Notes: generated by a model from the sequence alone, not told the origin. 64,000 nt of DNA from Spirochaetota bacterium (GCA_963663865.1 OY760686.1:736001-800000); one strand, 5' to 3'. Counted from the first letter of the stretch, positions 9,651 through 46,332 are shown. Numbers and translations are program-made.

Positions 9651-9661
9651 GCAGTACTCGT

Positions 9662-10483: not shown

Positions 10484-10484
10484 G

Positions 10485-11717
10485 CTATTCTCCCGTTTGG
10501 TTTCTGCTCTTCATCTTGTGAAGAAGTATTTTATCCATGGGCTGAATCGATTTGCCCGGATTTATATTTACTGTTTTTGCTTTAAGGCCCTTTCCGTCAT
10601 GGAACAGCTTTATTGTTGCGATTATTTCATCGTCGTTTCTGAAAACAGAAGCCGTATCGCCTGAGGCGGCCCTGTATATGGGATTCACAAATAGTGAAAT
10701 TGACGATGTGCTTCTGGCGTCTATAATATAACCGTTTTCTGGCTTGATTCGGGTGAAGCTGTCCAGAGCGTAGTTGTAGCTGTTGAGCGACGCACTTTTG
10801 TATTTAATGGCATTAAGCATCTTCTGACGCAATGTCTCATATTTGTTAAGGATGATGCTGTCGATCTCATCAAGCTTTCTTATGCCGGCCCCTGCTGAAT
10901 TGATGTAGGGTATCTCTCTTATTCGGGAAACAAGTCGGGCCCTGTTTTCCGTAAGGCGTTTGAGCTCCTGATATTCTCTCTGACTGATAAGGCCTTCCGC
11001 GAGCATTGTCCTGTCGAAGGTCTCAGGTTGACCGCTGAACTTAGTATCGGAGCTGAAGCGTTCACGGAGTATCGATGTCAGGGCCGGGTTGCTGAACCAG
11101 GGATTGTATTTGAGTATTGTTTCATTTATTCTCTGTTCATAGTACTTCTTCTGTGAAGACATCTGCAGCTCGTGGAGCTTTTTGTAGTTGTTGACTATTG
11201 CCTCGGCCTTGCGGATGTTCTCACGGAGTCTCAGATCGTAGCTGTCAACATCAGACTGGTATTTTGACACCTCGGCTTTCTTCGCAGATATCAGCGGATT
11301 GTATTTATTCATAACTGCCTGCTTTTTCGAGGCGTTTCCCGCTGAAGCCAGGGCCCTTTCCATGGCTGTGTTGAGCTCTTTGAGCTCCTCTCTGGCCCTG
11401 GCAAGCTTCTTCTCATTCTGCTTCGCTTTGCTCAGAAGCTCCTGAAGGTTGAGGTCCGTAATTGAGGCGAACTCCAGGTCATTGGCTTGATATCCTTTTT
11501 CAACATGCCTTGTGACAAGCAGGGTGACACCTGATAGTATTATCAGGAATCCGCAAACCAAAAGGTAGAGTTTGTAGTTTCGGTTTTTTGACGTTTTCCC
11601 GAACTCTCTTTCAAGGGAGTATCCGGTTTTGCTTTCAACGTCGGAAAACTCTTCCGGAAGAAAGTGGGACTTCACTGCCGGAAGCTGTTTCTTGCTTATT
11701 TTGTCTTCATTTCCCAT
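10485..11717 (-). CDS. Hypothetical single-TM coiled-coil protein
   Basis: 410-aa ORF with one TM near aa 50-68 and a long heptad-rich region; overlaps the cyclase stop. Confidence 0.8.
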   Translation of the reverse strand: MGNEDKISKKQLPAVKSHFLPEEFSDVESKTGYSLEREFGKTSKNRNYKLYLLVCGFLIILSGVTLLVTRHVEKGYQANDLEFASITDLNLQELLSKAKQNEKKLARAREELKELNTAMERALASAGNASKKQAVMNKYNPLISAKKAEVSKYQSDVDSYDLRLRENIRKAEAIVNNYKKLHELQMSSQKKYYEQRINETILKYNPWFSNPALTSILRERFSSDTKFSGQPETFDRTMLAEGLISQREYQELKRLTENRARLVSRIREIPYINSAGAGIRKLDEIDSIILNKYETLRQKMLNAIKYKSASLNSYNYALDSFTRIKPENGYIIDARSTSSISLFVNPIYRAASGDTASVFRNDDEIIATIKLFHDGKGLKAKTVNINPGKSIQPMDKILLHKMKSRNQTGE

Positions 11718-13405: not shown

Positions 13406-13722
13406 GAAAGAGTCCTGCCTGTTATAATAGTTTATCCTTATCAAAAAAAACAGTAATCCGTTACTGTCAAACAATATTTAGAAAAATTTGTAGCAAATAA
13501 TGCCCGCTTTGTGCCTATAAAGAGGTGTAATGTCAATTTCAAAATAGTATATTAAAAATCCCCGCCGGTTTCAGCGGGGATAGATTCCTGTTAAATCATT
13601 TATATGCCTTTCTTGAGTGGTTTCAATTGACTGTCATTGGATCATATAAATTAATCAATGGACATTTAAATATTTATTAATCATATTATCGCTATACTTA
13701 TGATGGAGGATGTTTTCAGCAA

Positions 13723-22740: not shown

Positions 22741-22911
22741 GGCGGGTTTTCGTTTTTTTCAGTGAATGTACGGGGCAAGCTTCTATTTGGCTGCACAGCG
22801 CAAGACGCTTTTCTCATGCCAGGGAGCCTGCCGTTCTTTTAATTCTGCCATTGTGTTCCAGTGAGCCGATGGTACATCCACGTCCTGAGAATTAGTCACT
22901 GTGAAATAATC

Positions 22912-22960
22912 CGGATAGCGGGTAGAGCCGCCCAATTTGGGCGGCTCTACCCGCTATCCG
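22912..22960. repeat. GTAG-type REP-like palindrome with extended arms
   Basis: CGGATAGCGGGTAGAGCCGCCCAA-T-TTGGGCGGCTCTACCCGCTATCCG with perfect 24-bp arms. The same core occurs at 34835, 35398 and 43192. Confidence 0.85.
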
Positions 22961-32124: not shown

Positions 32125-32155
32125 CAGTAAAGAGAATGCTTTTGTTTTTTTAGAG

Positions 32156-32182
32156 GGCCTGCTTGAAAAAGCGGGCTTTTTT
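32156..32182 (+). terminator. Intrinsic terminator
   Basis: GGCCTGCT-TGAAAA-AGCGGGCT stem followed by a T run. Confidence 0.65.
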
Positions 32183-32189
32183 GTGTGTT

Positions 32190-33010
32190 GTGCGCGGGCT
32201 TTTCTCTTAGCAGGGAGCCTGCTTGTCATTTTTCACGCTGAGAGCGTGGCACTTCTTTTGCCGCTTTTTGACCGGCCAAAAAGCGGCGGGAAAAAGCCGT
32301 TCCTCAGGCGCCGGAAGGGCTTGGCTGTAGCTGTTACCAAACTATTGCAGCGCCGTTATCATCATCCTGATGAAACGGCGCCCGGGCGATTTTCATCCAT
32401 GAAAATCTCACTTGTTGGGTTGTTGAAGCAGTGTGCCTATAGTTTCTTAATTCCGCTATAATGTTCCTGCCGACGCATCGTAGTCAGACGCGGAAAAGGA
32501 TGAATTGCCGCTGGCTTTTATATAGCTGCGCTGCGTGACACGCTTTTTTGTTGGCAGGGAGCCTGCCTGGCTTTCTCACACTGGGAGTGTGAGGCCTTTT
32601 TCTTCGTCACTTTCGTCCGGGTTTTTTGCCGCAGGCTTTAACTTGCTCAGCTGTGCGACTTGCTTTTCTCTTGTCAGAGACAGGGAGCCTGTGGACCATT
32701 TTCACGCTGAGAGCGTGGTACATCGTTGGCTTGTAACGGTATCGACCGTTTTCCGAAAATATATTTTGTGCGGAGCGCACGGGCATTTCTTCCGCCACTT
32801 TTTTGTTGCGCCACAAAAAAGTGGCCAAAAAAAGGCGTTCCTCAATCGCCGTAAGGGCTGGCTTTTGCAGTTAGCAAACTATTTCAGCGCCGTTATCATC
32901 ATCCTGATGAAACGGCACCCGGGAGATTTTCCTCCATGAAAATCTCACTTGTTGAGCTGTTGAGGCAGTGTGCGTGTAGTCTCTTAAATCCCCCATTATG
33001 TTCCAGCCGA
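32190..33010. repeat. Composite multi-hairpin repeat cluster 1 (two full units plus partial modules)
   Basis: 70-bp core CAGCGCCGTTATCATCATCCTGATGAAACGGC...GAAAATCTCACTTGTTG at 32348 and 32885; CACRCTGRGAGYGTG hairpins at 32234, 32577, 32703. Confidence 0.9.
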
Positions 33011-33171
33011 ATTCTCGCAGCTCCCGTGTGGCTGACGGTGATGAAGAGGTGCGCCTCGCGCGCAAAAGAAAGTACGCTCCCTACAAAGAGTGCATTTAAA
33101 GATAATAAATCGAAGGAAGCCAGAGAAAAAAGTGAGAAGATGCTGAAACGGAATCTACGGGAGCCTGTTAT

Positions 33172-34044
33172 TTACAATATATTGTAAATATGCTTAATCA
33201 TTCCGGATTGCCATTTTTTTTTAGATTTAATATACATATACCTATGACACTTCGAACTTGCCAAAAGAGATTTCAGGTTAAGGTTGCAGTCATAATTATA
33301 AAGAAAATGTGTTAAAAGCTCATTTAACAACATCCGTTTTTTTAAATATGTAAATGGGGAATGTAAAAATGTGAAAATTTTTGCTGAATCAATAAATCTG
33401 GCAACATCCATATATGGAGATCCAAAGTAAAAGATTTCCTTGAAATCAATAATCCAAATGCGATTTGTATTGTCTATTAAAACATTCATGGGTTTGAAAT
33501 CAGCATGAATGTAACAGAAATCATCTTTAGGCAAAGATTCATACAGACTTGTAATTTCATTATTTTCGTATGTTTCAGCTTCTTTTAGCCTATTGCTGTC
33601 AAATCGGCAAAAAGATTTCTTGAAGCTCATCTCCCTGGGGAATAGGTTGTGGTATTCTTTTAAAACCATGCCCGATCTGGAAAAAATATCAATCAGTTTT
33701 GTGAAATCCTTTAGAATATTGTCATGGAGAATACTTTGTATGTTTTTTGATCCTTCTACATACTTCATAACATAGAAGTTCTCTTTTTTGTTACTGAAAA
33801 AGGGCTCTGGGATATTAAAATTTAAATAATTACGTTTGTTTAGCCAGGATTTATAAACCATAGAATGATTCATGAAATCTTTGTGCATATTTTCTCCATG
33901 TTTTCCAAGTTTGAGCACATAAGATTGGTGTTCGCTCCTGATTTCATATACTCGTGAACAGTCGGTAGTTGACATTAGTTTATAAGAATGGATGTTTTCT
34001 CCAATCTGTTTTTCTATTCCTCTTATGATTCTTTTTATAGCCAT
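33172..34044 (-). CDS. Aminoglycoside phosphotransferase/choline kinase-like small-molecule kinase, AT-rich
   Basis: YVLK, YVMKYVEG, IHADFKPMNVL (HxDxxxxN), IIDF; visibly lower GC than the flanks. Confidence 0.8.
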   Translation of the reverse strand: MAIKRIIRGIEKQIGENIHSYKLMSTTDCSRVYEIRSEHQSYVLKLGKHGENMHKDFMNHSMVYKSWLNKRNYLNFNIPEPFFSNKKENFYVMKYVEGSKNIQSILHDNILKDFTKLIDIFSRSGMVLKEYHNLFPREMSFKKSFCRFDSNRLKEAETYENNEITSLYESLPKDDFCYIHADFKPMNVLIDNTNRIWIIDFKEIFYFGSPYMDVARFIDSAKIFTFLHSPFTYLKKRMLLNELLTHFLYNYDCNLNLKSLLASSKCHRYMYIKSKKKWQSGMIKHIYNIL

Positions 34045-34339
34045 AGTAATTCTAAATCCGGTTTAACTGAAAATATGATTCCTGCCTGCTCTGCGAATGA
34101 GCTGAGGCAGTACAAAGAACTCAAAAAATTGTAAAGACGGCTATCACTGACAAAGCTGTATAAATAACCAATTAACTAAAAGGATAAAAAAGTCAATAGA
34201 ATAGTCAAAATAATTATCATTTAAATTAATGGGAACGAATATAATCTTTCAATACTATGTTTCAGAATTGAGTTTCTTCTTAACAATTTGGACCTGGTAG
34301 TCTTGATTTTAGAGTAGGGGGGTGGTGTCTGCCTTGAAT

Positions 34340-35000
34340 TTTTCATGCCGAGAGTGAGGCTTCTCTTTTGCCGTTTTTGACCAGCGTCTGTTGCCGCAGG
34401 CTTATATTCAGCTGCGCTGCGCGAGATGCTGTTCTTTTGGCAGGGAGCCTGCCTGGCTTTTTCACACTGGGAGTGTGAGGCCTTTTTTTAGTCACTTTCT
34501 TTTTTAGAGCCAAAAAGGGGTGTTGCCCTAGGCTTTAACTCGCTCAGTTCCGCGACTCGCTTCTCTTCTGGCAGAGAGCCTGTCTGTTATTTTTCACACT
34601 GAGAGTGTGAGACCTTTTTCTTCGTCACTTTCGTCCGGGCGAAAGTGACCAAAGCCCGTTCCTCAGGCGCCGGAAGGGCTTGGCATTTGTAGTAACTCGA
34701 CTATTTCAGCGCCGTTATCATCATCCTGATGAAACGGCGCCCGGGAGATTTTCCTCCATGAAAATCTCACTTGTTGAGCTGCTGAGGAAGGGTGCGTCCA
34801 GTTTTTTAATTCCGCCATTGTATTTCGGCACCCGGTAGAGCCGCCCAAATTGGGCGGCTCTACCTCACCGTGACACGCAGCACCCCGCGGATGACAAGAT
34901 GAGGAGGGAAGCCGAAGGCCGGAATATTGACTTCAGTACAAATCGCACTGGTTGAGCTGTTGAGGCAGTGTGCATGCATAGTCTTTCCATCTCCATTATG
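34340..35000. repeat. Composite multi-hairpin repeat cluster 2, including a GTAG palindrome
   Basis: Hairpins at 34463 and 34595, core at 34707-34776, GTAG palindrome at 34835-34863, partial tail near 34941-35000. Confidence 0.9.
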
Positions 35001-35147
35001 TTTTGATCTTCTGTTTCGATATCGGGCTTTTTATGTAATAACGTTCAGCATCAGAGAAAATGAAAAAAATTGCATTAGAATAAAAAATAATTCACGGCCG
35101 AAGAATATGGAACGTGTAACTAATAGATATCAAAGGGTAACGATACA

Positions 35148-35224
35148 ACTGGAACACAAACGGTATTGAAACGGTGTACGACTGGAGCAGTAACGGAGAT
35201 ATAACGGAGTAGTAACGGAGCTGT
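35148..35224 (+). repeat. Seven degenerate 11-bp direct repeats (AACGG/ACTGG cores)
   Basis: Cores at 35148, 35159, 35170, 35181, 35192, 35203 and 35214. Confidence 0.75.
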
Positions 35225-35388
35225 AGATGTTAACATGAGGCTGTGAGGGAGCAAAAATGCCCGGGACGTTTTTTTGCATTGTCAGCTGTTGTTGTGAGAA
35301 ACCGGGGGATTTTTCCAACAAGCGGGTGAAGATATCTATGCATTATGGCATATTACGTAATAATATTGATCTAACCGTCATTATGTTC

Positions 35389-35435
35389 CGGCACCCGGTA
35401 GAGCCGCCCAATTTGGGCAGCTCTACCGGGTGCCG
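35389..35435. repeat. GTAG-type REP-like palindrome
   Basis: CGGCACCCGGTAGAGCCGCCCAA-T-TTGGGCAGCTCTACCGGGTGCCG; 23-bp arms with one mismatch. Confidence 0.85.
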
Positions 35436-35542
35436 TATTGTGCAGGTATATCTACGCAGGGAACGGTCGAGACTGTTCCGCATCATCCACCAAGACTACA
35501 TCGAGTCATCCATGGTATAAAAAGAAAAGCAGCGAGAAAAGC

Positions 35543-35571
35543 TTGACATTAAGAATTGTACTGGTTATGAA
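35543..35571 (+). promoter_or_regulatory. Putative sigma70 promoter of rhs
   Basis: TTGACA-17 bp-TATGAA, followed by a GAGGAG RBS and ATG 35602. Confidence 0.5.
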
Positions 35572-35601
35572 TTTCTCACATACCATTTGAGGAGCCGGCA
35601 G

Positions 35602-38600
35602 ATGAATATTATTCAAGCCCTTTCAAGCCCTTTCAAGCCCTTTCAAGCCCTTTCAAGCCCTTTCAAGCCCTTTCTGATTATTCTTATGTTATCATTTTTC
35701 ATTATCTGTGCAGATAATATTTACGCGAACCACGCGGTCAATCCCGACGGGTCTTTCGCCTATAGCATTCCAATTGAGGTCCCGCCCGGAACGAATGGAA
35801 TAGCCCCTTCGCTTTCTCTTACATATAACTCAAACGCCGGCAACGGAATCTGCGGTGTCGGGTGGCAGCTTTCCGGACTGCCGTACATTACGCGCGACAG
35901 TACCTATCCTGTAAACTATGACGGGTTTGACCATTACACAGGGCCTGCCGGACGGCTGGTAAATATCGGCGGCAGCGTCTATCATTACGAGGATGAGAAC
36001 TTCTGCAGGGTGGAGGCACATGGTTCTTATGGCGACGGCCCTGAGTACTGGGTAGAGACAAAGCCTGACGGGACGAAGTATTATTACGGATATAACAGCG
36101 GGGAATGCGACTTCGGTTCCAGCTATCGTTCAAAGATATCAATGGTAAAAGGCAACGGATCTATAACTTCTAATACAAGGGTCTGGGCCCTGTCAAAGGT
36201 TCAGGATATTAACGGAAATTATTACAGCATCAAATATACCCAGTCAAATGGCCAGTTTTACCCTGAGGAAATTATTTATACCGGAAATGTCGTAACAGAT
36301 TACGATGCCCGCCGGTCAGTTGAGTTCGATTACGAATCAAGGACAGACGATATTGCTGATTATTCATCCTCATCAAGAGTCGAGACATATAACAGATTGA
36401 AAAGCATAACGGTAAAGCTTGACGGAGATGAGGTCAGGAAATACACTCTTTATTACTCAAGCACTTCATCCTATGGAGGGCTTAGAAGCCGTATTGCCAA
36501 TGTTGCCGACAGCGGTCTGCCTGCGGGAGAAAATTTTTACAGCTTCAGCTGGACAAACTCGCCTGTATCTTACAACTCTTATTATGGAAATCTGAACTAC
36601 GATACTGAGAATATTGGTAATTCCTATTTTGGCGATTATGATGGTGACGGCAAGCTCGATTACATGATAAAAAACGGCGCCTCCCTGAAGGTTTTCAAAT
36701 TTAACGGATCAGGCTGGGTTGATATCGGACAGTACTCGGGTGTCGGTTATGTTTATAATATGATGGTGGATGTGAACGGCGATAATAGATCAGATCAGAT
36801 AATGCCAACTATGGATTTCTCTCAGGCAGATTACAATTTTCATTTCTATCATACAATCAGGTATGCCGGTTCCGGGACACTGGAGAATGTCACTTTCGGC
36901 AATGACGCTTATACGGCAAGTGCTGTTACGGTTGATGCCAGAGTGCGCTACGTTGATGTCAACGGGGACGGGAAATGTGATATAGTGTATAGAGACGCGA
37001 ATAATAACCACAAATTCCTGTATCGGACTGAACCCGGTCAGGGGAATTATCCTCAATCCGGGGGGAACTGGAGGCTGGGGACAAGCGTGCAATTCCCGAG
37101 CGGGAGCACGGATTCCGGATCTGATTATCCCTGTTTCACATACACTGACGCTACAGGTGATGGGAAAGCTGATATTGTATTTATAAAATACGATCCAGTA
37201 TCGGGGACAGTTAAAGCAAGGGTTTGTGTAAACAAGGGCTCAGGATGGCAAGAGAGCTTTACAGCTTATTCATTTCCATCGAGTTATTCTACGATATCTG
37301 ACAGATATACTGTTACAGACATGAACGGAGATGGACTGACGGATATTGTTTACAGAAATGATAACAATCAGCATTATATTTATTCAAGCACAGGGACTTC
37401 ATTCAGGCAGAGCGCGTACACGGATATTTTGGGAACTGAATCGGATTCAGCTTATTATAACTACTATGATATGAATGGCGACGGTTGGACGGACATTGTT
37501 GCCATGAATTCCTCTGGGAATTTTACAATAGCTCTGGCAAAGTCTGTCATAGGCAAAAACTGGACCACTGTAAGCAAATCTCTGGGGAACGGAGATAAGG
37601 AAAGGTACCGGTTTGGAGATTTCAACGGAGACGGCCGGGTTGATATTTTATATATCAACAAATCATCAGATCAATTAGTGCTCGGGACTTCATTTTGTAA
37701 GGCAATAGAGAAGATTTCTACAGCGACTCCGCCGAATCAGACATTAACGAGTGTTGTTTATGAGCTTCCGACAACCATGACAGATAATATTGATGATTGG
37801 GTTGCTGACAGTGCTTTATATTTGTCGGGAGGGAGCGGTAAATTTATGCCGGATAATACCCCGAGGAGCCTGGTGTCATCACTAACAGTTCATGACGGTG
37901 TTTCATATTATGACGCGGATGAATACTGTTTGTGGTACGAGCCTGATATAAGCGTGTGTTATGAGCCGGATTATAGAAAAATAAGTTCAACAGTTTACTC
38001 ATATCACAACGGACTGATAAAGAAGGGATTGCCATATGAGAGGAAGAGTGTCGGATTTGAAAGAGTTGCGTCCAGAATGGGGGATGGAACCTATGCAAGG
38101 AATGATTATATTCAGACAGGGCTTTCGTTTCCCGGAAGAATGGCATACCATTATGAGTTTAGCTCCGAAAGACAGACAATTAGTCGAAAGTATTATACGT
38201 ATCTGGAGGAGACGCCGTATTCCGGAGTGAAGTGGATTAAGACGGATTCTGAACTCAGTCATGACTATGAATCAGGAGTAGCTGTTTCAAATATTCTGAG
38301 AGAATATGGCTACGACGAAGGCGATAGTGGTTGTTATGGTAACGTAACTTCAATAGCGATGAGTGTCAACGGTAATGATGGACTATATACGGAGATATCT
38401 TACAGTCCGAATCAATCGGACTGGATAATTAACCGGGTAATATCGGTAAAGAAATGGGAGAACAGCAGCTGCGCCAATCTTATTTCATGGTCGAGCTTTG
38501 GTTACGATAATTACGGATGGGGAGGAAATATCAAGACGAAGGCAGATTACCTGAAGGAAGGTACGAGCTGGAGGGCTATTGAAAGAAATTTTGGATATGA

Positions 38601-41600
38601 TGATTACGGAAATATAACATCGCTTTCTTTCCCAAATGGGACAGGAGGAAATTCCAGCGTCATAACGAACACATATGACGAGGACTATCATACCTTTCCT
38701 GTTGAAGAAATATCATCTAATGACAGCGGCACAGAGCTCAAAACAATTACTACCTATGATTATGCTACTGGAAATAAAACATCAGTTACGGATGCCAATG
38801 GCAATACTACTGTTTATGAATATGACGATTATGGAAGAATTGTTGCTGAGAAGGCCCCTGGCGATGACTGGACAAAACAGTATTTATACTCCAAAGAATA
38901 CTTCCCGGCGCCTTACAGCGTTGTTGAGAGCCGCTTTAAAGACGATTCGTCTCTCGGTTATTCGTGGAAGCGTGAATACTATGACGGGCTTAAGCGCGTT
39001 GTAAAGACCGAGTCGAAGGGGTACAATGGACATGCGCTTGTTCAGGAGTTTAGCTATGATCTGCTCGGAAGGCTTGAGTCAAAGACAAACCAGTACCTGA
39101 GCGGATGCGATACTCCTCAGAAAACGGAATATGAATATGACAGCGCCGGAAGGCCGCAGAAGGCGGAAGCTCCGGATTCAACGGTCAAGAGAACGGAGTA
39201 CAGCTACGCGGGAAACCTCAAGGTGCTCAGGGAGATAGATGCTGACGGCAATGCCAGTTTGAGCAAGTATGACGCGCAGGGGAGGCTCAGGTACCAGGTT
39301 GATCCGTCGGGCGGAACGATAACATATAACTACGATGCCCTCGGCAGGCTGATATCGACTGTTGACGCGGGCGGGAATGTAACCTCAATTGCCTACGATA
39401 CTCTCGGAAGGAAGACGTCGATTACTGATCCGAACACGGGGACTACCTCGTTTACCTACTATGACAGCGGCGATGTGAAGACCCAGACGAACGCGCGAGG
39501 TGTAACGCTTACCTATACCTACGACTCGCTTAACAGGATAACATCTGAGAGCTCTTCAGACGGGACTGTCAGGGCCGAGTATGTCTATGACAGCGGGACT
39601 ACGAACAACCTCAAGGGCAGGCTTTACGGTGTAGATGACAATTCGGGGAGCACGGTGTTTTCATACGACGCGAGGGGTAATGTCACTCACACCCTGCGTT
39701 CAATAGACTCAGACGGAGACGGGGTTGAGGACCGCGAATTCGCGGCGTCATTTGCCTACGATTCGCAGAAGAGGCTTGTTGAAACGGCCTATCCTGACGC
39801 GAATCATCTTGTTGTGAAGAGGGTGTACGGGGAGGCCGGAAACCTCCACGCGGTGACAGACGAGTCGGGCAACGCCTTTGTGCAGTACAGAAGGTCTGGG
39901 TCGACAGCGACTGCCATGAACGGCCATTCCATAAGCAGGATGACCGGAAACGGTGTTGAGACAGTAGTTGATTTTAATCCCGCCAACATGAGACCCGTCA
40001 CTCTTGAGACAAAGAGGGGGAATGATGTTCTTGAGCAGATGAGCTATACGTTCAGACCAGGGGGCAATATTCTTTCAATAACCGACGGATGTACCTCTGA
40101 CGGTAATGACAGCGAGAGCTTTACCTACGATTCGGTTGGAAGGCTGGCACAGGCGGTATCGGCTTCATCGATGTATGGAACAAGGGACTATGTATACGAC
40201 GCTCAGGGAAATATACAGCTGCATGTCGTAGACAACTCGGTAGCTTTCGGCTACACCTATGGCAGCTCAGCGCATCCTCACGCGGTTTCTTCTACAACAG
40301 CTTTGCCATACAACATGCCGGTGGGCTCATACAGCTATGACTCAACCGGCAACATGACTTACAGAAACGGCAAGACGCTTGTCTACGACGCGAAGAACCG
40401 TCTCATAGAGGTGAGAAACGGGGCTAATGTAGTGGAAAGCTACGTCTACGACTTTACCGGTGCGAGAATAATCAAGAAGCTCGCTGACGGTTCGGCGGTG
40501 TTCTCCATAAACGGGATGCATGACCTGAAGACAACGCCCGGGTTCCCCGATCAGTACGTGAATTACATAACAGGGGCTGAGGGCGACCTTGCCGCGCAGA
40601 TTGAGGGAGTCAACACGGCAGCCGGCGCGAGCGTCTACCCTGTTGTGAAGAACATGTACAACTGGAAGAGCCCGGCGGGACTGATGCTAACGATAAACGC
40701 CTACGCGAGCGCGTGGCTGAACAACCCGGCGAACTACAGAAGGCTGGGATACGCGCTCTTCGTCCTGCTTTTGGCGGCGTGTTCATTTGTGCTGTTCTAC
40801 AGCGTGAGAAGGTATAAAGCAGCAAGGAGCGCTAATCCTGGTTACATGCTGCCATGGCCATGGCTGAGGCACAGCGTACCCGGAATACTGCTCTTCTTCG
40901 TGTTTACATCTTTCGGGCTCACCGGCTGCTTCGACGGGTCGGTAGACAATACGACAAGAAGCAATGTGAAGTACATGCACCCCAACCATGTAGGTTCAGT
41001 GGCAATGGTAACCGACCACGAAGGAACGGTGGTGGCGCGGTACAAGTACGAGCCGTACGGGAAAGTACTGGTTCAGTCAACAGGCACCGGAATTTCAGAC
41101 TACAAGTACACATCACAAAAGTCGGACGCTACAGGCCTCTACTACTACAACGCGAGGTACTATGACCCGGAAATCGGCAGGTTCATAACGGCTGATACCG
41201 AGATACCTGATGTTAAGAACACTCAAGCTTTCAATAGGTACATGTACGTTGTCGGAAATCCGGTGAATTATGCTGATCCGAGTGGACACTGGGGATTCGG
41301 CTGGCTGAAAAATATAGCCAGTAGTGCGTGGAATGGGATTAAAACAGCAGGGAAAGTGATGTATGATTATGTAATAAAGCCTGTGTATGATAATGCCTTA
41401 GCTCCTGTGGGGCATTTCTTCCGGGCTGGCTGGGATGGTGCAATGGATACGGTATTTTCCGGAGATTGGTGGGAAGGGATAGGGAAAAATATTTATAATG
41501 TTTTAACTGACAAAAACTTTTATTATACAGCAGCTTTGGTAGCACTTGTTGTTGGATGTAGTTGTTTTGCTGGATTATCCATCGGCTTGTATATAGGTTT

Positions 41601-41934
41601 TAATCTTAGCTTATCTGTTGGTGTGTCATTGGTTGTAAGTGGCATAGCTGGAATGCTCGCAGGAGCTGTCATCGGCGCAATGATTGGTTATGTAGGAAAT
41701 CAAATGATATGCTATTTTGATGAAGATTATAGAGATTCAAAATACTTTATGGGTACTGAAAAATATATTCTAATAGGTGCTCTTGCTGGTGGTGCAAGTG
41801 CTTTGGGAGGGAATGTTGTGGCGCAAATTGTGAAAGGATATTATTTTTCGGTAAAAGCCTTCTTTAGTGTTCTTGCTATTGGGTTTAGTAAGTTAAATCA
41901 ATTTGGACAATTCCTTGGAGGATTGGCTATATAA
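35602..41934 (+). CDS. Large Rhs/YD-repeat polymorphic toxin (SpvB/TcB-like N-terminus, FG-GAP repeats, YD repeats, Rhs core, hydrophobic C-terminal domain)
   Basis: GSFAYSIPIEVPPG..G..PSLSLTYNS...GVGW; seven DxNGDGxxD-type repeats; YDALGR repeats; GLYYYNARYYDPEIGRF and NPVNYADPSGH core end; AT-rich 3' tip. Confidence 0.93.
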   Translation: MNIIQALSSPFKPFQALSSPFKPFLIILMLSFFIICADNIYANHAVNPDGSFAYSIPIEVPPGTNGIAPSLSLTYNSNAGNGICGVGWQLSGLPYITRDSTYPVNYDGFDHYTGPAGRLVNIGGSVYHYEDENFCRVEAHGSYGDGPEYWVETKPDGTKYYYGYNSGECDFGSSYRSKISMVKGNGSITSNTRVWALSKVQDINGNYYSIKYTQSNGQFYPEEIIYTGNVVTDYDARRSVEFDYESRTDDIADYSSSSRVETYNRLKSITVKLDGDEVRKYTLYYSSTSSYGGLRSRIANVADSGLPAGENFYSFSWTNSPVSYNSYYGNLNYDTENIGNSYFGDYDGDGKLDYMIKNGASLKVFKFNGSGWVDIGQYSGVGYVYNMMVDVNGDNRSDQIMPTMDFSQADYNFHFYHTIRYAGSGTLENVTFGNDAYTASAVTVDARVRYVDVNGDGKCDIVYRDANNNHKFLYRTEPGQGNYPQSGGNWRLGTSVQFPSGSTDSGSDYPCFTYTDATGDGKADIVFIKYDPVSGTVKARVCVNKGSGWQESFTAYSFPSSYSTISDRYTVTDMNGDGLTDIVYRNDNNQHYIYSSTGTSFRQSAYTDILGTESDSAYYNYYDMNGDGWTDIVAMNSSGNFTIALAKSVIGKNWTTVSKSLGNGDKERYRFGDFNGDGRVDILYINKSSDQLVLGTSFCKAIEKISTATPPNQTLTSVVYELPTTMTDNIDDWVADSALYLSGGSGKFMPDNTPRSLVSSLTVHDGVSYYDADEYCLWYEPDISVCYEPDYRKISSTVYSYHNGLIKKGLPYERKSVGFERVASRMGDGTYARNDYIQTGLSFPGRMAYHYEFSSERQTISRKYYTYLEETPYSGVKWIKTDSELSHDYESGVAVSNILREYGYDEGDSGCYGNVTSIAMSVNGNDGLYTEISYSPNQSDWIINRVISVKKWENSSCANLISWSSFGYDNYGWGGNIKTKADYLKEGTSWRAIERNFGYDDYGNITSLSFPNGTGGNSSVITNTYDEDYHTFPVEEISSNDSGTELKTITTYDYATGNKTSVTDANGNTTVYEYDDYGRIVAEKAPGDDWTKQYLYSKEYFPAPYSVVESRFKDDSSLGYSWKREYYDGLKRVVKTESKGYNGHALVQEFSYDLLGRLESKTNQYLSGCDTPQKTEYEYDSAGRPQKAEAPDSTVKRTEYSYAGNLKVLREIDADGNASLSKYDAQGRLRYQVDPSGGTITYNYDALGRLISTVDAGGNVTSIAYDTLGRKTSITDPNTGTTSFTYYDSGDVKTQTNARGVTLTYTYDSLNRITSESSSDGTVRAEYVYDSGTTNNLKGRLYGVDDNSGSTVFSYDARGNVTHTLRSIDSDGDGVEDREFAASFAYDSQKRLVETAYPDANHLVVKRVYGEAGNLHAVTDESGNAFVQYRRSGSTATAMNGHSISRMTGNGVETVVDFNPANMRPVTLETKRGNDVLEQMSYTFRPGGNILSITDGCTSDGNDSESFTYDSVGRLAQAVSASSMYGTRDYVYDAQGNIQLHVVDNSVAFGYTYGSSAHPHAVSSTTALPYNMPVGSYSYDSTGNMTYRNGKTLVYDAKNRLIEVRNGANVVESYVYDFTGARIIKKLADGSAVFSINGMHDLKTTPGFPDQYVNYITGAEGDLAAQIEGVNTAAGASVYPVVKNMYNWKSPAGLMLTINAYASAWLNNPANYRRLGYALFVLLLAACSFVLFYSVRRYKAARSANPGYMLPWPWLRHSVPGILLFFVFTSFGLTGCFDGSVDNTTRSNVKYMHPNHVGSVAMVTDHEGTVVARYKYEPYGKVLVQSTGTGISDYKYTSQKSDATGLYYYNARYYDPEIGRFITADTEIPDVKNTQAFNRYMYVVGNPVNYADPSGHWGFGWLKNIASSAWNGIKTAGKVMYDYVIKPVYDNALAPVGHFFRAGWDGAMDTVFSGDWWEGIGKNIYNVLTDKNFYYTAALVALVVGCSCFAGLSIGLYIGFNLSLSVGVSLVVSGIAGMLAGAVIGAMIGYVGNQMICYFDEDYRDSKYFMGTEKYILIGALAGGASALGGNVVAQIVKGYYFSVKAFFSVLAIGFSKLNQFGQFLGGLAI
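35612..35664 (+). repeat. 10-bp tandem repeat (TTCAAGCCCT) x5.3 at the start of the rhs CDS
   Basis: Five perfect copies plus TTC, beginning 10 nt after the first base of the ATG. Confidence 0.95.
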
Positions 41935-41935
41935 C

Positions 41936-42649
41936 ATGAAGAAGTCTATGATGAAATTTGTACAAATAGTAATGTTAGTTGCTGTTTCCACTGAAGGATT
42001 TTGTTTTGAGACTTTATCAATGGATTGGCCAAAACGTATTCTGAACCGGCATCAGTATTTTCAAGTATATTATGACCATGGTGTAAGTATGAAGATTACT
42101 GTACCTAAAGGAAAGTCTATAAATGCTTTTAATGTCGAAAGTGGAGAGACTGAGACACTAATTCTAAAAGCTGATAGAGATTTCTTGGATTTTCAAAATA
42201 GAGGTTCTTCAATAGGAATTAAACATTTATTTGGTTATGGCTTGGCTGGCACAGCCTGGAGGGGAAGTGATTTTTTATCAATAGGGATTATTACGGATGC
42301 AAAATTTATATATACAAAAGCATCTAATATCACTCAAATAGGATTTGGTTTTAATACTCAACTTTTTTGGTTGTTCAACTTTTATATTGGTTTTGGTTAC
42401 GCCTATTTTACATCATCTATACCTGATGTCGTAGGATATGAAATTACTTCGGATGGTCAAGAACCATTTGCGGTAATAAGGGAGAGACGTATTTCTGGAA
42501 AATATATATTCACAGGATTGCAACTGAAAATACCTATAAATTTAAAATTTCATGCATTTATGAGTATTAATTTTGATTCATATTCAAATACGAAAACATC
42601 AAATCTTGAAAGGATGTCGGTGCAGTGTGGATTTGGTGTAAAACTGTAA
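41936..42649 (+). CDS. Putative cognate immunity protein (exported, AT-rich)
   Basis: ATG 1 nt after the rhs stop, upstream GGAGG, signal-peptide-like N-terminus, same low GC as the rhs tip. Confidence 0.7.
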   Translation: MKKSMMKFVQIVMLVAVSTEGFCFETLSMDWPKRILNRHQYFQVYYDHGVSMKITVPKGKSINAFNVESGETETLILKADRDFLDFQNRGSSIGIKHLFGYGLAGTAWRGSDFLSIGIITDAKFIYTKASNITQIGFGFNTQLFWLFNFYIGFGYAYFTSSIPDVVGYEITSDGQEPFAVIRERRISGKYIFTGLQLKIPINLKFHAFMSINFDSYSNTKTSNLERMSVQCGFGVKL

Positions 42650-42686
42650 TACCTTCTCCGCAATTTATGAATAAGACTTGAGAGAA

Positions 42687-42779
42687 ATGTCAGGCTGCTT
42701 TGACGGGTCGGTAGACAACACGACCAGAAACAATGTCAAGTACATGCACCCGAACCATGTCGGTTCAATTGCAATGGTG
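42687..42779 (+). pseudogene. Remnant of an orphan Rhs core cassette
   Basis: 42693-42779 matches rhs 40924-41010 at 77/87 nt (GCFDGSVDNTTRxNVKYMHPNHVGSxAMV), then breaks into the repeat cluster. Confidence 0.85.
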
Positions 42780-42780
42780 A

Positions 42781-43220
42781 GTGTAGTCTTTTTTCACGCT
42801 GAGAGCGTGGCCCCTTTTTTGTGCGGAGCGCACGGGCATTTCTTTCGCCGCTGCACTGCGCGACACGCTTTTTTGGCAGGGAGCCTGTCGTCCTTTTTCA
42901 CACTGGGAGTGTGAGACCTTTTTCTTCGTCACTTTCGTCCGGGCGAAAGGGGTCGACGGCTATTTCGACCTCCTGTCGGCCGTCGACACTTAAGCGTCCT
43001 GCTTTTCGGCCAATATCTTTTAGGCGCCGGAAAGGCTTGGCTTTTGCAATTACTCGACCATTGCAGCGCCGTTATCATCATCCTGATGAAACGGCACCCG
43101 GGAGATTTTCCTCCATGAAAATCTCACTTGTTGAGCTGTTGAGGAAGGGTGCGTCCAGTTTTTTAATTCCGCCATTAGTTTCCTGCACCCTGTAGAGCCG
43201 CCCAAATTGGGCGGCTCTAC
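42781..43220. repeat. Composite multi-hairpin repeat cluster 3 ending in a GTAG palindrome
   Basis: Hairpins at 42795 and 42899, core at 43064-43133, palindrome at 43192-43220. Confidence 0.9.
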
Positions 43221-45940
43221 CGCGTATTCCCAACCCGTCCCAGCATAAGCTCAATCTTGTATTTCTCAAGGAAATAGCGGGTTGTGCCGGAGTTCTGCTT
43301 CGTAACAGGACCGCTGAATCTAAGTCCTGTCAGTACGGCTGAGCTTCCTGCCGGGATTCCCCTCTGTGCAGAGGCGGGCCCTATCTGGTTAAGGGGGACA
43401 GGCCCGGTTGAGCCGAAGGCGCTCGAAATATCGTAAAGCGGCTCTTTGGTGCCAAAGCCTGCAACCTCAGCAGAGAGATAGCTCCCGCCCGCGAACTTGA
43501 GCAGGTGCTGTTCTCTCACGGAAGAAGTCTCGTTCGAAAAGGAAATATCCCCCTGCTTGCTTATTGACATTTTATGGAAGTCATATTCACGGGACGGGAC
43601 AGAGCCGGCGGAATCGGCATAAACCGAATCAATGGTGTTTTTGCAGAACTCGAACAGGCATGCGAGATATCTGTCCTTTTGATCAAGGGGCTTAATGAAG
43701 GTGAAGAGATTCCCGCAGTCATCAGTAAGATAGATGAACACGTATGACGATATTTCTTCATATACTACAGAGACACAGCCTGGTTTGTGCCTTGCCATAA
43801 TCTGGGAGAGTACATTAAGCCTTGTGTCGTTCGGAAAAAAGATGTTCTCCGGGTGTCGGAAAGGGCTGAGCGAAATCTCCGCGAGGGCCTTGAGCGGGTT
43901 GTCGAAAACAGAAAAGCGGAGTGCTCCGGCCCTTTTTGAAACGGAGATGTACTTGCCCTCAAGCTTAGCTGTAAAACGGGGCTGTTTGGTGGCGCCGGCT
44001 TCAACAGCGCAGCTGTATGCGTCCTTGTAAATCCTGATAATGTCCTTGTACAGCTTTTTGAAGGGTTCAGGAGTAACTATGGAACAGTAATCGTCAAAAG
44101 GCCTCTTCTGTACGAGCCCGTCGTTGAGTATTATCTTGAGAATATCCACAAGGGTTTCTGATGAAGAGTATCTTTTAATAAAAGACTGCCCCCAGCTTGT
44201 ACGGTAGATGTGGTATATGCAACGGATTGAATCGGCATTCTCAATATTAAAATTTATGATCACCATGTTCATTATATTGAACGCGGGATTCAGATAAAAG
44301 GCGTTGGTAATGGGGATGTCCTTCTCGTTGAAAAGTGAGGATATACTGTTCATAAGCTCAGTAATCAGGTTCTGGTTGATTCTGCTGTAACCTGACTGAA
44401 TCTGCATTCTCGTAAACACGGGGCTGTAAAGCTTGTTCATGGCGGCCCATGCCGCGAGTTTAACGAGGTCATTTTCCGTTTTCAGTGTTGTGGGAACGAA
44501 ACGGGCACCCTCACTTGTGTCGCGCTTATACAGCCTCCACTCCGAGTTGTCAACCGAACCTGTAGCGGGCTCAATGTATAGTATAGACTCGTTTGGGGTT
44601 TCCTTGAATGTAACATACTGGTCTATTTCGCCTTCATTCGCGGAGAAGTGGCTCTTTATCTTTCTGCTGATGAGCGTAAAGTCTGAAGATGATATTTTCT
44701 GTGAAAGATTGAGCGCTGGAAGTTCCATTGAAATCTTCTGATATGAAAGCAGCATGAAAGTCTTAACCTGGTTCCAGAAGGTGATAATCTTCCTGTAGTC
44801 CCAGTTGTCGAAGTTGTCGTTGTCCTTTATCATGCTTTCAGTCCAGCCCCACTGCTTCACGTAATCGAACATGATACCCACCCTGTAGGGCAGGTTTTTG
44901 CTGTCCTTGAGGCCCGAATATTTGGAAAGCTGAGGATTGATCTTGAAATACAGGTTCTGCCTTAGTATGTTGAGCAGCTGCTTGTCCTGAAGGCTTTTGT
45001 TGTAATAGTCGTAAACCTCTTCAAACAGAATGATGTATGAGTCAATGGTTCTGTCGTCGAATATACCCTTGTGTACCGCGGTTTTGAGCTTGTGGCAGAG
45101 AAGGTGGGTCATGCCTGAATCGAACAGATACTTTTCAAGAATGCCTATTTTCAGGATGGACTTGAACGGGTTTCCCAGCGCCTTGATGAGCTGAAAAAGA
45201 GCAGCACCCAGAAAATCCTCTTTTGTGATCGAATAGAGATTGCCGAGGTCAACGAATTTTGTTTCGCGAAGTTCCTGCGGGAGCTGCTCGAACAGTTTCA
45301 GATAGTCATCGTCATTAATCCTGGGCACAACCCACCAGAAGGGCGTTTTCCCGGCGATAATTACCGAGCTCCTGTAGAACTCATCCTTGAGAGTTGCTCC
45401 TATGGTGGAACCGAAAGCCTCATCGTCATCTTCAGCATAGATGTTTCGGTGGATGTTGTCTATGTCGTTTATGAACAGGTGGACCTCTATGTTTATCTCC
45501 TTCATGGCCCAGTTCTGAATCGCAGTAACCTTTGCCTCAAACGCTGCAAGTTCTTCTGGGCTGTAGTTCTTCCGGTCAATGCAGACCCAGTAGTCGAAGT
45601 CGGAATCGCGCGTGTAGGCAATTGTAGCAACGCTTCCAAGGAGGGCCAGCATCTGAACAATCGGTGCCGGATTCTCCAGATTGAGTCCCGGTCTGTGAAA
45701 ACGGGACTCAATGTATTTGACTGTGTCCTTGTCCGGGGTATAGCCGTATATCCCCAGGGGAGAGGGGCCTTCGACGTAACCTGGTATCTTCTTGTCATTT
45801 ACGCAGAGAAGAAAAGGTATGGAATTTACAATTCTTCTAATGTTGTTATTGGGGATAAGGCTCTGAAACTTTTCATACTTTGTTTTGTTGAATATGAGAA
45901 AGTTTTTGTGGTTCTTTTCGATTTTTTCAGTGAATGTCAT
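43217..45940 (-). CDS. cyaA: Class I adenylate cyclase-like protein
   Basis: LLGSVATIAYTRDSDFDYWV (GS..SDxD), KDEFYRSSVIIAGKTPFWW, ALFQLIKALGNPFKSILK parallel enterobacterial CyaA motifs. ATG 45940 preferred as start. Confidence 0.8.
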   Translation of the reverse strand: MTFTEKIEKNHKNFLIFNKTKYEKFQSLIPNNNIRRIVNSIPFLLCVNDKKIPGYVEGPSPLGIYGYTPDKDTVKYIESRFHRPGLNLENPAPIVQMLALLGSVATIAYTRDSDFDYWVCIDRKNYSPEELAAFEAKVTAIQNWAMKEINIEVHLFINDIDNIHRNIYAEDDDEAFGSTIGATLKDEFYRSSVIIAGKTPFWWVVPRINDDDYLKLFEQLPQELRETKFVDLGNLYSITKEDFLGAALFQLIKALGNPFKSILKIGILEKYLFDSGMTHLLCHKLKTAVHKGIFDDRTIDSYIILFEEVYDYYNKSLQDKQLLNILRQNLYFKINPQLSKYSGLKDSKNLPYRVGIMFDYVKQWGWTESMIKDNDNFDNWDYRKIITFWNQVKTFMLLSYQKISMELPALNLSQKISSSDFTLISRKIKSHFSANEGEIDQYVTFKETPNESILYIEPATGSVDNSEWRLYKRDTSEGARFVPTTLKTENDLVKLAAWAAMNKLYSPVFTRMQIQSGYSRINQNLITELMNSISSLFNEKDIPITNAFYLNPAFNIMNMVIINFNIENADSIRCIYHIYRTSWGQSFIKRYSSSETLVDILKIILNDGLVQKRPFDDYCSIVTPEPFKKLYKDIIRIYKDAYSCAVEAGATKQPRFTAKLEGKYISVSKRAGALRFSVFDNPLKALAEISLSPFRHPENIFFPNDTRLNVLSQIMARHKPGCVSVVYEEISSYVFIYLTDDCGNLFTFIKPLDQKDRYLACLFEFCKNTIDSVYADSAGSVPSREYDFHKMSISKQGDISFSNETSSVREQHLLKFAGGSYLSAEVAGFGTKEPLYDISSAFGSTGPVPLNQIGPASAQRGIPAGSSAVLTGLRFSGPVTKQNSGTTRYFLEKYKIELMLGRVGNTR

Positions 45941-46332
45941 TTTATCCGGACCATCGACACACGATTGTATTGACAACAAAAGCTTGGAATTGTTGATTGA
46001 AACAGGCTTCTGTGCTTCATATTAGCGGGAGTGCGTATCGAATCAAGCAAAAAAAACGCCTGAATGAAAACAGTATCCGGATACATATTCACTTCAGCAG
46101 CTCGCAATCTCAGGCGGTTAAACCAATATAGCTTACGGAAAAGCCGAATATCATGGTATTTTAACCGAATTTGCCCCAATGGCCGGGTTTCAATACGCGC
46201 TGCTATTTGTTATTTTGTAGCTGCCCGACGGGCGTTTTTCGGCCGCATCGGGAGTTTTATTTGCGTGATTTTAAGCGTTTTTTAAGATTGCAAATTTGAC
46301 CTGATTCTGATAGCTTTATTACGAGAGGACAA

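Follow-up and report, generated by a model that had tools for sequence, protein, structure and literature searches.

The window analysed here, a 64,000-nucleotide stretch of the chromosome of a Spirochaetota bacterium, holds four composite units built of short hairpins and several fragments of such units, set among genes that include an APH-like phosphotransferase gene and an Rhs-like gene. The features are listed below by window position.

22770..22960, + strand: composite fragment of module a, h1, block T2, module X1 and palindrome h6 (repeat families D5, D8 and D9; module map, genome island 758770-758960), directly 3' of the stop codon of a carboxylesterase gene
32152..32181, + strand: the upstream gene's own terminator-like hairpin and T run (terminator scan, sequence); the first element starts 3 nt past it
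32184..32470, + strand: unit 1, type I, with degenerate h1, h2 (CACGCT-GAG-AGCGTG, 32234-32248), long hairpin h3a (32260-32287), L hairpin, h4 (32350-32381), h5, T1 and T2 (repeat families, module map; covariance-model match 32290-32429, 166.9 bits)
32505..33007, + strand: unit 2, with module a, h1, two h2 (32577-32591 and 32703-32717), h2c, long hairpin h3b (32794-32825) and a type I core (repeat families, module map; covariance-model match 32828-32966, 151.8 bits)
33172..34044, - strand: APH-like phosphotransferase gene (Pfam PF01636, E 2.9e-9), 30.7% GC, between two element clusters
34300..34870, + strand: unit 3, with decayed head, two h1+h2 pairs (h1 34439-34453 with h2 34463-34477; h1 34570-34584 with h2 34595-34609), h3c (34624-34649), L, h4 (34709-34740), h5 (34745-34768), T1, T2 and palindrome h6 (34834-34864) (repeat families, module map, terminator scan, folding; covariance-model match 34649-34788, 160.5 bits)
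34919..35002, + strand: lone 3' core piece with decayed h5 region, T1 and T2 (family D2, 74% identity; nhmmer match, genome 770918-771002)
35375..35431, + strand: lone T2-like block and palindrome h6, 5' of the Rhs-like gene (family D5; blastn)
42693..42778, + strand: orphan copy of the end of the Rhs core, 90% identical to 40924-41009 (family D10; sequence)
42786..43225, + strand: unit 4, with h2 (42795-42809), h2c, module a, h1, a second h2 (42899-42913), h3c, h3e, type I core, T2 and h6 (43187-43225) (repeat families, module map; covariance-model match 43006-43145, 141.2 bits)

We read the AT-rich phosphotransferase gene as an acquired cassette. The stretch at 35375..35431 is repeated at 100% identity upstream of a second Rhs-like locus (blastn; genome 1178054-1178110). 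The orphan Rhs-core end passes straight into unit 4, where a toxin tip would normally come, and the same junction of Rhs-core end and element is also present at two other loci. At its other side, unit 4 adjoins the stop codon of a convergent adenylate cyclase gene.

The initial annotation had described a unit of roughly 250-300 bp with four core copies, fragments near 22790-22833 and 34941-35000, and seven small hairpins of the forms CACGCT-GAG-AGCGTG and CACACT-GRG-AGTGTG, all of which we recovered. The cores belong to a 200-nt repeat family (D1; 32306, 32843, 34665 and 43022) with 71-93% identity, the fragments lie at 22775-22840 and 34919-35002 (families D9, D8 and D2), and CACRCT-GRG-AGYGTG occurs seven times, always on the + strand, where shuffles expect none. 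The four window core copies share one 28-nt hairpin, GCCGTTATCATCATCCTGATGAAACGGC, without any difference, again against a shuffled expectation of zero. The TCC-loop hairpin (h4) had been called invariant, which holds within the window and fails genome-wide, where three copies carry compensated changes and others uncompensated ones. In each reading frame, at least 14 of 21 copies contain stop codons, 3-base periodicity is absent, and ORFs overlapping elements gave no Pfam match; the elements are non-coding. A search of the window against Rfam returned no family at the gathering score, relaxed filters gave best matches at chance level (E 0.37-4), five other element loci matched only a group II intron, and the plasmid and phage searches with the element returned no match. 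Judged by these comparisons, the element appears to be undescribed.

Across the genome the family amounts to about 17.7 kb, made up of 36 composite elements that fall into 19 islands, and it follows a module grammar. According to the module map, an element is 250-900 nt long and consists of independent stem-loops in a set sequence, drawn from at least 20 module types, all in direct order on one strand. The head consists of one to three copies of a terminator-like pair, GGCAGG-GAG-CCTGCC (h1) and CACRCT-GRG-AGYGTG (h2), with a T run after each member. Next comes one of five interchangeable long hairpins, h3a-e; consistent with the interchangeability proposed for the hairpins at 32260, 32794 and 34624, alignment places all three directly 5' of the core. 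The core is of two alternative types that share the end block T2, type I being L, h4, h5, T1 and T2 and type II being X1, X2 ... T2, and the tail may contain X3/X4, palindrome h6 and X6. Copies keep common end blocks while their interiors differ and hold varying numbers of internal modules, an anatomy like that of mobile elements; the map confirms the earlier suggestion that modules are shuffled between clusters. A T run lies 5' of h1 in most copies, hairpins are plentiful and the element ends are themselves mosaic. Some copies are truncated or split, and a group II intron sits inside one core copy.

We evaluated selection on the fold in 21 full core copies from this genome, which provide 33 pairs and 689 pair cells. 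Standard pairs form in 95.2% of the cells, and both-sided changes occur at 7 of the 33 pairs, a count equalled in none of 500 shuffles; sliding the structure by 1-3 columns left one to four such pairs. When diverged homologues from other genera were added, 25 of the 33 pairs covaried (again 0/500 shuffles as high). Nucleotide diversity among copies is lower in stems than in linkers (pi 0.12 against 0.26; by stem and linker, 0.08-0.11 against 0.27-0.33). Because covariation is significant within the genome and much stronger with the other genera, and because stems are less diverse than linkers, we conclude that the stems and loops are under selection, as the initial annotation had supposed from covarying stems in a chain of hairpins. 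Homologues in four other genera retain the fold, and loop motifs are kept across genera on entirely different stems. Compensated double changes are present in single copies, and uncompensated single stem changes also occur. G-T pairs outnumber A-C pairs (30 versus 6 in the core, 41 versus 19 in the other hairpins), an excess that is confounded by the leading strand's G/T-rich mutational skew, which could produce it. One 451-nt unit folds far more stably than its shuffles as DNA (z -7.5), as + strand RNA (-5.7) and as - strand RNA (-6.7). The + strand folds better in 17 of the 21 own copies and in three of eight copies from relatives, which show no strand preference; folding energy does not single out one strand.

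The family is polar relative to replication, a new finding that goes beyond the initial annotation. Cumulative GC skew has its minimum at about 340 kb and its maximum at about 1930 kb, and dnaA lies at 350148-350633. With respect to these replichores, all 34 nhmmer matches and all 30 covariance-model matches to the core are oriented with the replication fork, and the core sense strand has the G-rich leading-strand sequence, i.e., that of the lagging-strand template. The same direction is found for 29/29 copies of h1, 46/48 copies of h2 and 34/36 whole elements; the two exceptions are type II elements, neither of which lies within a locally inverted segment. Tested against the gene background (1439 of 2403 crude genes, or 60%, on the leading strand), the elements have a binomial probability of 3e-6 and the core-bearing islands, co-oriented in 16 of 16 cases, one of 2.8e-4. 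Co-orientation with replication is seen for 25 of 42 tRNA genes, and the genes that neighbour an element share its strand at the background rate (24/36 upstream, 21/36 downstream). Because genes, tRNA genes and neighbours all show such values, transcription does not explain the polarity. Low-copy homologues in sister genera, compared with local GC skew, gave two with, two against and one undecided; in the present genome, 20-kb skew windows identified the replichore correctly in 154 of 157 cases. Our reading is that polarity accompanies the expansion of the family in this genome.

The elements are associated with AT-rich accessory gene cassettes. Mean GC content is 37.7% for the 39 ORFs situated between two elements that are under 6 kb from each other, compared with 46.2% for the genes of the genome, and the islands also hold IS256, IS110, IS66 and IS3 transposase genes, toxin-antitoxin pairs, Rhs fragments and a type I restriction system. 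Filled-versus-empty sites, a target sequence and target-site duplications were sought among the elements and none was found. No inverted repeat links the ends of the three elements examined, in which only the local hairpins are inverted, and the listed element flanks carry no duplications; the element was accordingly rejected as a MITE.

Several known systems resemble the element in part. REPs begin with GTAG, as does palindrome h6. In Neisseria, intergenic mosaic elements are arrays of short modules near variable genes, and mosaic and Correia elements have short inverted repeats that flank repeat segments, or terminal inverted repeats; the element is likewise a mosaic of short modules near variable genes but lacks terminal inverted repeats. 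PMC3049150 refers to the Correia element. As described in the passages of PMC3049150 and PMC2828477 used here, the BOX repeats of S. pneumoniae and S. suis are composite and intergenic, with fixed end modules that enclose internal modules varying in number, and one internal module can be found between different ends. Each module forms its own stem-loop, a transposase has not been assigned with certainty, and copies cluster and insert into one another, all of which parallels the element; SPRITE, with a U-rich tract after its hairpin, resembles h1 and h2. Being intergenic, non-coding and variable in module number and choice, the element is a BOX/BIME-type mosaic, which is a kind and not a homology family. 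It differs from BOX in having at least 20 module types, lengths of up to 250-900 nt and a host of unrelated lineage, and no sequence relationship was detected in searches that covered Rfam, plasmids and phages. The BOX passages used here describe no comparable replication polarity.

Such polarity is a feature of REP/BIME repeats with their RAYT and of IS200/IS605-derived elements, whose hairpins are recognised in single-stranded DNA and whose activity on the lagging-strand template results in orientation bias, according to PMC6006769, PMC5027513 and PMC3971601; BIMEs are also mosaic. The element shares this tie to the lagging-strand template (30/30 cores, 34/36 elements). Unlike these systems, it resides in a genome without a Y1 transposase and is ten times the length of a REP; and unlike a REPIN, it has no inverted doublet and its modules are all in direct order. 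IS200/IS605-derived elements carry subterminal hairpins at both ends with defined cleavage or guide sequences and insert 3' of a fixed short target; in the element, with its many hairpins and mosaic ends, no such sequences or target could be identified. Integron attC sites, including clusters that lack an integrase, likewise conserve structure rather than sequence, fold as single-stranded DNA in one replication orientation, and stand on the 3' side of small accessory cassettes that include toxin-antitoxin pairs (PMC5371416). The element differs in its several separate hairpins, its copies over 19 islands and a genome without an integron integrase. An attC/CALIN assignment was rejected, as the element is not a single imperfect hairpin of 55-141 nt, and motifs resembling the R''/R' boxes (RYYYAAC ... 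GTTRRRY) are found in only part of the copies and are absent in other genera.

We searched for a mobilising enzyme in the closed genome, which is 98% complete. Y1 HUH/RAYT proteins (PF01797) gave no matches at E <= 0.01, while controls were detected in six genomes, and no TnpB was found in the genome. The search for IS91 Y2 proteins gave no matches, with its positive controls likewise silent. The best match to the integron integrase model (TIGR02249) is split in two, with model positions 180-215 missing, and reaches 204 bits, below the cut-off of 265; this recombinase is found family-wide irrespective of the element and is about 30 kb from the nearest one. Of 60 sampled relatives, 56 carry Y1 genes, and whether a genome has them is therefore uninformative about the element. 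The proposal that a HUH/RAYT partner might be flanked by the same hairpins was not borne out in the closed genome or among the six Y1 genes inspected in relatives, none of which is flanked by the core. The earlier statement that the window lacks a transposase did hold, with none among its 40 ORFs of at least 120 aa scanned against Pfam.

The strict replication polarity favours a reading in which the element folds as single-stranded DNA over one in which it is a structured RNA. Our leading explanation, to which we give somewhat less than an even chance, is a non-autonomous mosaic repeat, similar in kind to BOX and BIME, that would spread or persist via single-stranded DNA on the lagging-strand template. 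Such an element would act as DNA and not as a gene. Its hairpins would fold when their strand is single-stranded, as on the lagging-strand template at the fork, where copying, insertion or recombination of the element would occur by the logic of IS200/IS605-derived elements and REPs, through a postulated enzyme. In this genome the family would have expanded from an ancestral structured element of low copy number that sister genera retain, and its members now bracket AT-rich acquired cassettes, probably as a recombination and insertion hot spot. We infer the single-stranded stage, the mobility and the hot-spot role from these patterns, and the replication-polar hairpin chains that bracket foreign-looking genes suggest a new kind of single-strand-folding genome element.

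A possible, if doubtful, alternative is a transcribed structured RNA module like pneumococcal BOX/SPRITE, expressed as a 3' UTR or a small RNA, in which h1 and h2 would be stacked intrinsic terminators, insulators or exonuclease-protecting stabilisers and a protein or mRNAs would contact the core hairpins at their conserved loops, which are UCC-rich and anti-Shine-Dalgarno-like. Hairpins with T runs, mostly h1, h2 and h2c, form 14 terminator-like sites where 3.8 +/- 1.9 are expected, all 14 on the + strand, although as predicted terminators their stems are short (5-9 pairs). Several elements begin 10-60 nt 3' of a co-oriented stop codon, loops are kept across genera while stems are replaced, the + strand folds better in most own copies and has G-U pairs in excess, and BOX elements are themselves modular, RNA-folding and expressed (PMC3049150). 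Yet this explanation leaves the polarity of the 30 cores unaccounted for when genes and tRNA genes are only weakly co-oriented; a dedicated 3' UTR or terminator role predicts that nearly 100% of upstream genes are co-oriented, whereas 24/36 is background, and the upstream gene in the window already ends in a terminator of its own ahead of the element. Furthermore, no conserved promoter was found (9 promoter-like sites versus 7.4 +/- 2.1 expected), and the relatives show no strand preference in folding energy. The polarity could instead arise in inert or decaying repeats if copies inverted within one replichore, which would cause asymmetric inversions by homologous recombination, were purged as harmful. 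Other repeated genes are indeed uniformly oriented (IS110-like 7/7 with the fork, IS256 3/3 against), the genome architecture is strongly polar (counts of GGGNAGGG are 261 on the leading and 51 on the lagging strand), and truncated copies and uncompensated stem changes exist. We consider this explanation unlikely, since likeness of about 72-93% over 200 nt makes a poor recombination substrate, stem diversity is low, neutral decay does not predict the compensated double changes, and the fold is retained in four other genera.

Very unlikely, in our judgement, is an integron-like cassette boundary in which the element is an attC-like single-strand site for a postulated recombinase that captures and shuffles small gene cassettes at many chromosomal loci. 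The layout of one or more genes followed by an element recurs with toxin-antitoxin and small accessory genes, the cassettes are AT-rich, copies are alike in sequence within the species and share only structure and short motifs between genera, TTTCAAC ... GTTGAAG-type inverse motifs surround h4 and h5 in 9 of 21 copies, and the single orientation relative to replication is comparable to that of integron arrays (PMC5371416). Set against this are the sub-cut-off, family-wide and distant recombinase, several separate hairpins over 250-900 nt in place of one imperfect hairpin of 55-141 nt, R-box-like motifs that other genera do not keep, and loci that are scattered and not one array. A version independent of the integrase, in which multi-hairpin sites on the lagging-strand template serve as recombination sites for a novel recombinase or a replication-fork process, seems to us quite unlikely; if it were true, such sites would let the chromosome take up, keep and reshuffle small AT-rich accessory cassettes, namely toxin-antitoxin pairs, defence genes and Rhs tips, at about 17-19 loci. 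It is extremely unlikely that the - strand encodes small RNAs of the CsrB/RsmZ kind that titrate CsrA. The - strand loops of h4, h5, X1, X3, X4 and h3e read CAGGAUG, CAUGGAUG or CAGGAGG, with GGA in the loops, and a CAGGAUG repeat is typical of CsrB; csrA and fliW are in the genome, and two cores give weak PrrB_RsmZ matches on their - strand (15.7 and 15.6 bits, E ~1.7). These scores are far under the gathering score of 44, however, such RNAs would all be head-on to replication, h1 and h2 have no GGA on the - strand, and the T runs 3' of hairpins are on the + strand.

The hairpin repeats of the window belong to a genuine and undescribed family, although mosaic intergenic hairpin repeats as a general kind are known. 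A 200-nt core is present at 32306, 32843, 34665 and 43022, with 71-93% identity, which agrees with the four copies that the initial annotation had described. The 28-nt hairpin h4, which had been called invariant, is the same in 4/4 of these copies, and the small hairpin h2 (CACRCT-GRG-AGYGTG) was counted seven times, as claimed, with 7/7 on the + strand; the expected number in shuffles was 0 for each. The additional fragments were located at 22775-22840 and 34919-35002, and a single site directly 5' of the core is indeed taken by three different long hairpins. In a genome-wide BLASTN search, the repeats of the window matched 41 merged loci (17,750 bp in total) within the closed host genome of 3,156,400 bp and 45.9% GC, in which a core profile gave 34 matches, 21 of them almost full length.

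Mapping 21 modules, defined by hand, onto the islands yielded a grammar for the element. An optional head, composed of the GGGACGGT hairpin, h2c and module a, is followed by one to three pairs of h1 (GGCAGG-GAG-CCTGCC) and h2, then by one of five long hairpins (h3a-e), and then by a core of either type I (L, h4, h5, T1, T2) or type II (X1, X2 ... T2), with optional tails that comprise X3/X4 or h3e, the palindrome h6 and X6. The genome contains 36 such elements in 19 islands. Coding potential was ruled out, as each reading frame is interrupted by stop codons in 14 or more of the 21 copies; furthermore, the elements lack three-base periodicity, and the ORFs that overlap them match no Pfam family. 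No terminal inverted repeats of the element were found. Searches of Rfam families, plasmids and phages returned no match to the element, consistent with the proposal of an undescribed family, and no tRNA or tmRNA was found in window positions 20000-46000. BIME, BOX and the Neisseria elements are examples of mosaic intergenic repeats, a class recognized for decades; to our knowledge, the spread and role of most of them are unclear.

The structure of the fold is under selection, as the initial annotation had proposed from stem covariation. Across 21 full cores, 95.2% of cells in a 33-pair structure form standard pairs, and 7 of the 33 pairs vary on both sides, compared with 1-4 in slid controls and with 0/500 shuffles as high. 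The h5 stem occurs in four compensated versions, and h4 shows three independent compensated double changes, each in a single copy. Diversity among copies is 0.08 for h4 and 0.11 for the h5 stem; it is 0.27 for the spacer and 0.33 for T2. One 451-nt unit gave a better fold than any of its shuffles, whether treated as DNA or as RNA, and folding energy showed no clear preference for either strand. The excess of G-T over A-C (30 vs 6 and 41 vs 19) favors the + strand and is confounded by the G/T-rich mutation bias of the leading strand itself. One copy shows a long-range helix that joins the spacer to T1/T2; it was rejected because it is absent from the other copies in an alignment judged by eye.

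The fold is also conserved beyond the genus. A covariance model of the core, run on 60 genomes sampled from the same family, detected full-length, strongly diverged homologues in four of them (three in G008, two each in G012 and G014, and one in G004), and it also matches one metagenome contig. The L, h4 and h5 stems of the homologues are wholly different sequences, and two loops are retained, CCUCAGnCGCCGG in L and CAUCCAUG in h5; directly upstream of the core there is once more a variable hairpin. In a joint alignment of 30 sequences, which was fitted to the covariance model and hence is biased toward it, 25/33 pairs vary at both positions and pairing holds in 94.5% of cells, with 0/500 shuffles as high. 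In 40 other genomes, blastn gave a single match of 45 nt; detection of the homologues required the covariance model. The exact h4 pattern had 0 matches in genome contigs and 0 in metagenome contigs; a looser two-loop pattern returned 91 metagenome and 2 viral stretches, of which only 1/93 (L225) carries a covariance-model match, and the other 92 are chance. Genes neighboring the homologues are accessory or defense-like (ParE toxin, DUF4143 ATPases, DUF1016, WYL, DUF559, NOV_C and RadC). No neighbor is common to the homologues in relatives, which indicates that the element is neither the leader of one gene nor part of a conserved transposon.

Within the source genome, the elements are associated with foreign-looking cassettes. 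Where two elements are separated by less than 6 kb, the ORFs in between (39 in all) have a mean GC content of 37.7%, against 46.2% for genes of the genome. The islands contain toxin-antitoxin pairs (ParE, RelB and Gp49/HTH), Rhs fragments, transposase genes of IS256, IS110-like, IS66 and IS3 types, a type I restriction system and an ORF6N gene; a truncated element at genome position 556.7 kb is followed 343 nt downstream by an IS110-like gene. In a comparison of the window with contigs from four DNA runs, short-read contigs were interrupted at the repeats. One of these runs, approximately 2% diverged, leaves the AT-rich cassette at 33281-34376 without coverage and gives no clean bridging contig, with joints that possibly derive from paralogous copies.

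Features beside the elements, solitary h6 copies, and palindromes of a sister genus
Window 33172-34044: APH-like gene, 30.7% GC, the window example of a bracketed cassette
Window 42693-42778, genome 1188.8 kb and genome 1193.4 kb: junctions between an orphan Rhs-core end and an element, near-identical each time
Extracted stretch L116, 6739-8262 (genome about 1038035-1040001), - strand: sole group II intron of the genome
Genome 653976-654012, 654996-655036, 679833-679867 and 2858731-2858773: solitary copies of h6
Extracted stretch L161, 1282-1366 and 1874-1939: palindrome clusters beside a Y1 gene in G008, unrelated in sequence to the element

At three loci, the ends of orphan Rhs-core copies pass directly into an element in place of a toxin tip. 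In window 35603-35681, a 2115-aa ORF resembling Rhs/SpvB/FG-GAP/TcdB proteins has its probable start codon, the ATG at 35603 downstream of a GAGGAG, and its codons 4-26 consist of about seven tandem copies of the 10-nt unit TTCAAGCCCT. Since a 10-nt unit does not preserve the reading frame, expansion or contraction of the array by one unit would cause a frameshift, and from its sequence the array looks like a slipped-strand on/off switch. The group II intron (RT/maturase with 374 bits to TIGR04416; domain V-VI match to RF00029) sits within the h5 region of a core copy, between model positions 103 and 108, and its strand is opposite to that of the element. Solitary copies of h6, a perfect palindrome (GTAGAGCCGCCCAA(A/T)TTGGGCGGCTCTAC), are found in intergenic sites apart from other modules, in one case between convergent genes, and may behave like a REP sequence or a two-way terminator.

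The property that distinguishes this family, which is both unusual and testable, is a near-perfect polarity relative to replication in the absence of a cognate single-strand transposase. Cumulative GC skew reaches its minimum at ~340 kb and its maximum at ~1930 kb, with dnaA at 350148-350633. Core matches are on the + strand from 554 kb to 1739 kb and on the - strand elsewhere, which holds for 34/34 matches by nhmmer and 30/30 by the covariance model. Co-orientation with replication extends to h1 (29/29), h2 (46/48) and whole elements (34/36). The sense strand thus always has the G-rich sequence of the leading strand and forms the lagging-strand template. Against a background in which 60% of 2403 crude genes are on the leading strand, the probability of this arrangement is 3e-6 for elements and 2.8e-4 for the 16 core-bearing islands; tRNA genes are co-oriented in only 25/42 cases. 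Transcription does not explain the polarity: genes beside elements share the element's strand at the background rate (24/36 upstream, 21/36 downstream). Both anti-oriented elements are type II, and neither sits within a locally inverted segment, which rules out local inversion. Relative to local GC skew, the low-copy homologues in sister genera are mixed (2 with, 2 against, 1 undecided); on these small numbers, the polarity seems to belong with the expansion in this genome and not with the fold itself.

A KOPS-like polar motif is also present: leading-strand vs lagging-strand occurrences are 261 vs 51 for GGGNAGGG and 117 vs 15 for GGGCAGGG. The skew of GGCCGGTG is stronger still (143 vs 19). 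KOPS was ruled out as the source of element polarity, as the full GGGCAGGG octamer is found in only 2 elements.

No transposase was detected among the 40 scanned window ORFs of at least 120 aa, as the initial annotation had stated. Its suggestion of a HUH/RAYT transposase flanked by the same hairpins did not hold: the genome contains no Y1 gene (HUH transposase of IS200/IS605/RAYT type) and no TnpB, and no core flanks the Y1 genes inspected in four relatives. Y1 genes occur in 56/60 sampled genomes of the family (1-14 each), which makes their absence from this genome notable and also means that no link can be drawn between Y1 and the element. An IS91 search gave no matches, and likewise none from positive controls. 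An Xer-like recombinase, the single integrase-like relative, was rejected as a partner because it is family-wide irrespective of the element and not near any element. In the sister genus G008, a 150-aa Y1 gene on contig 13 has clusters of another GC-rich palindrome on either side, an arrangement that, as judged from sequence, looks like a classical REP-RAYT.

We tentatively favor an action of the element at the DNA level, in which the hairpin chain would fold on the lagging-strand template. The family may have spread or rearranged there in a single orientation through an enzyme that may since have been lost, and present-day elements, on either side of acquired cassettes, could serve as hot spots for recombination and insertion. 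IS200/IS605-type elements are reported to spread in one orientation on the lagging-strand template (PMC5027513, PMC6006769). For the present element, the single-stranded DNA stage, mobility and the hot-spot role are inferences, and its anatomy, the selection on its structure, its polarity and its link with cassettes are demonstrated. The main rival, a transcribed RNA module similar to BOX or SPRITE repeats, is somewhat less likely: terminator-like hairpin and T-run sites number 14 vs 3.8 expected, with 14/14 on the + strand, many elements begin directly after a co-oriented stop codon, and the conserved loops are UCC-rich, yet an RNA module leaves the polarity unexplained.

Inert repeats whose polarity arises from selection against inversions would be in keeping with the diverged IS110-like genes, 7/7 of which are co-oriented with replication, and the IS256 copies, 3/3 of which are anti-oriented, but conserved stems with compensated changes fit this poorly and make it improbable. 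An integron-like site, the boldest of the readings, is more doubtful still, in a genome where no integron integrase was found, and a CsrA sponge encoded by the - strand is a remote reading. Compared with the 60% for genes and tRNA genes, the near-perfect polarity of a family with no candidate single-strand transposase offers an unusually clean handle, and sister genera keep the fold in a low-copy, non-polar element. Together these features make the mode of spread separable from the purpose of the fold and a single-strand mechanism at the replication fork directly testable. If elements truly mark the entry sites of foreign cassettes, they would represent a new gene-capture route outside integrons.

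A class I (enterobacterial-type) adenylate cyclase gene (43217-45979, - strand) terminates exactly at the last hairpin of the element at 42786..43225 (+), and two class III cyclase genes, together with several pairs of AraC-type regulators and periplasmic-binding proteins, are found elsewhere in the window, including at 7713-13474.
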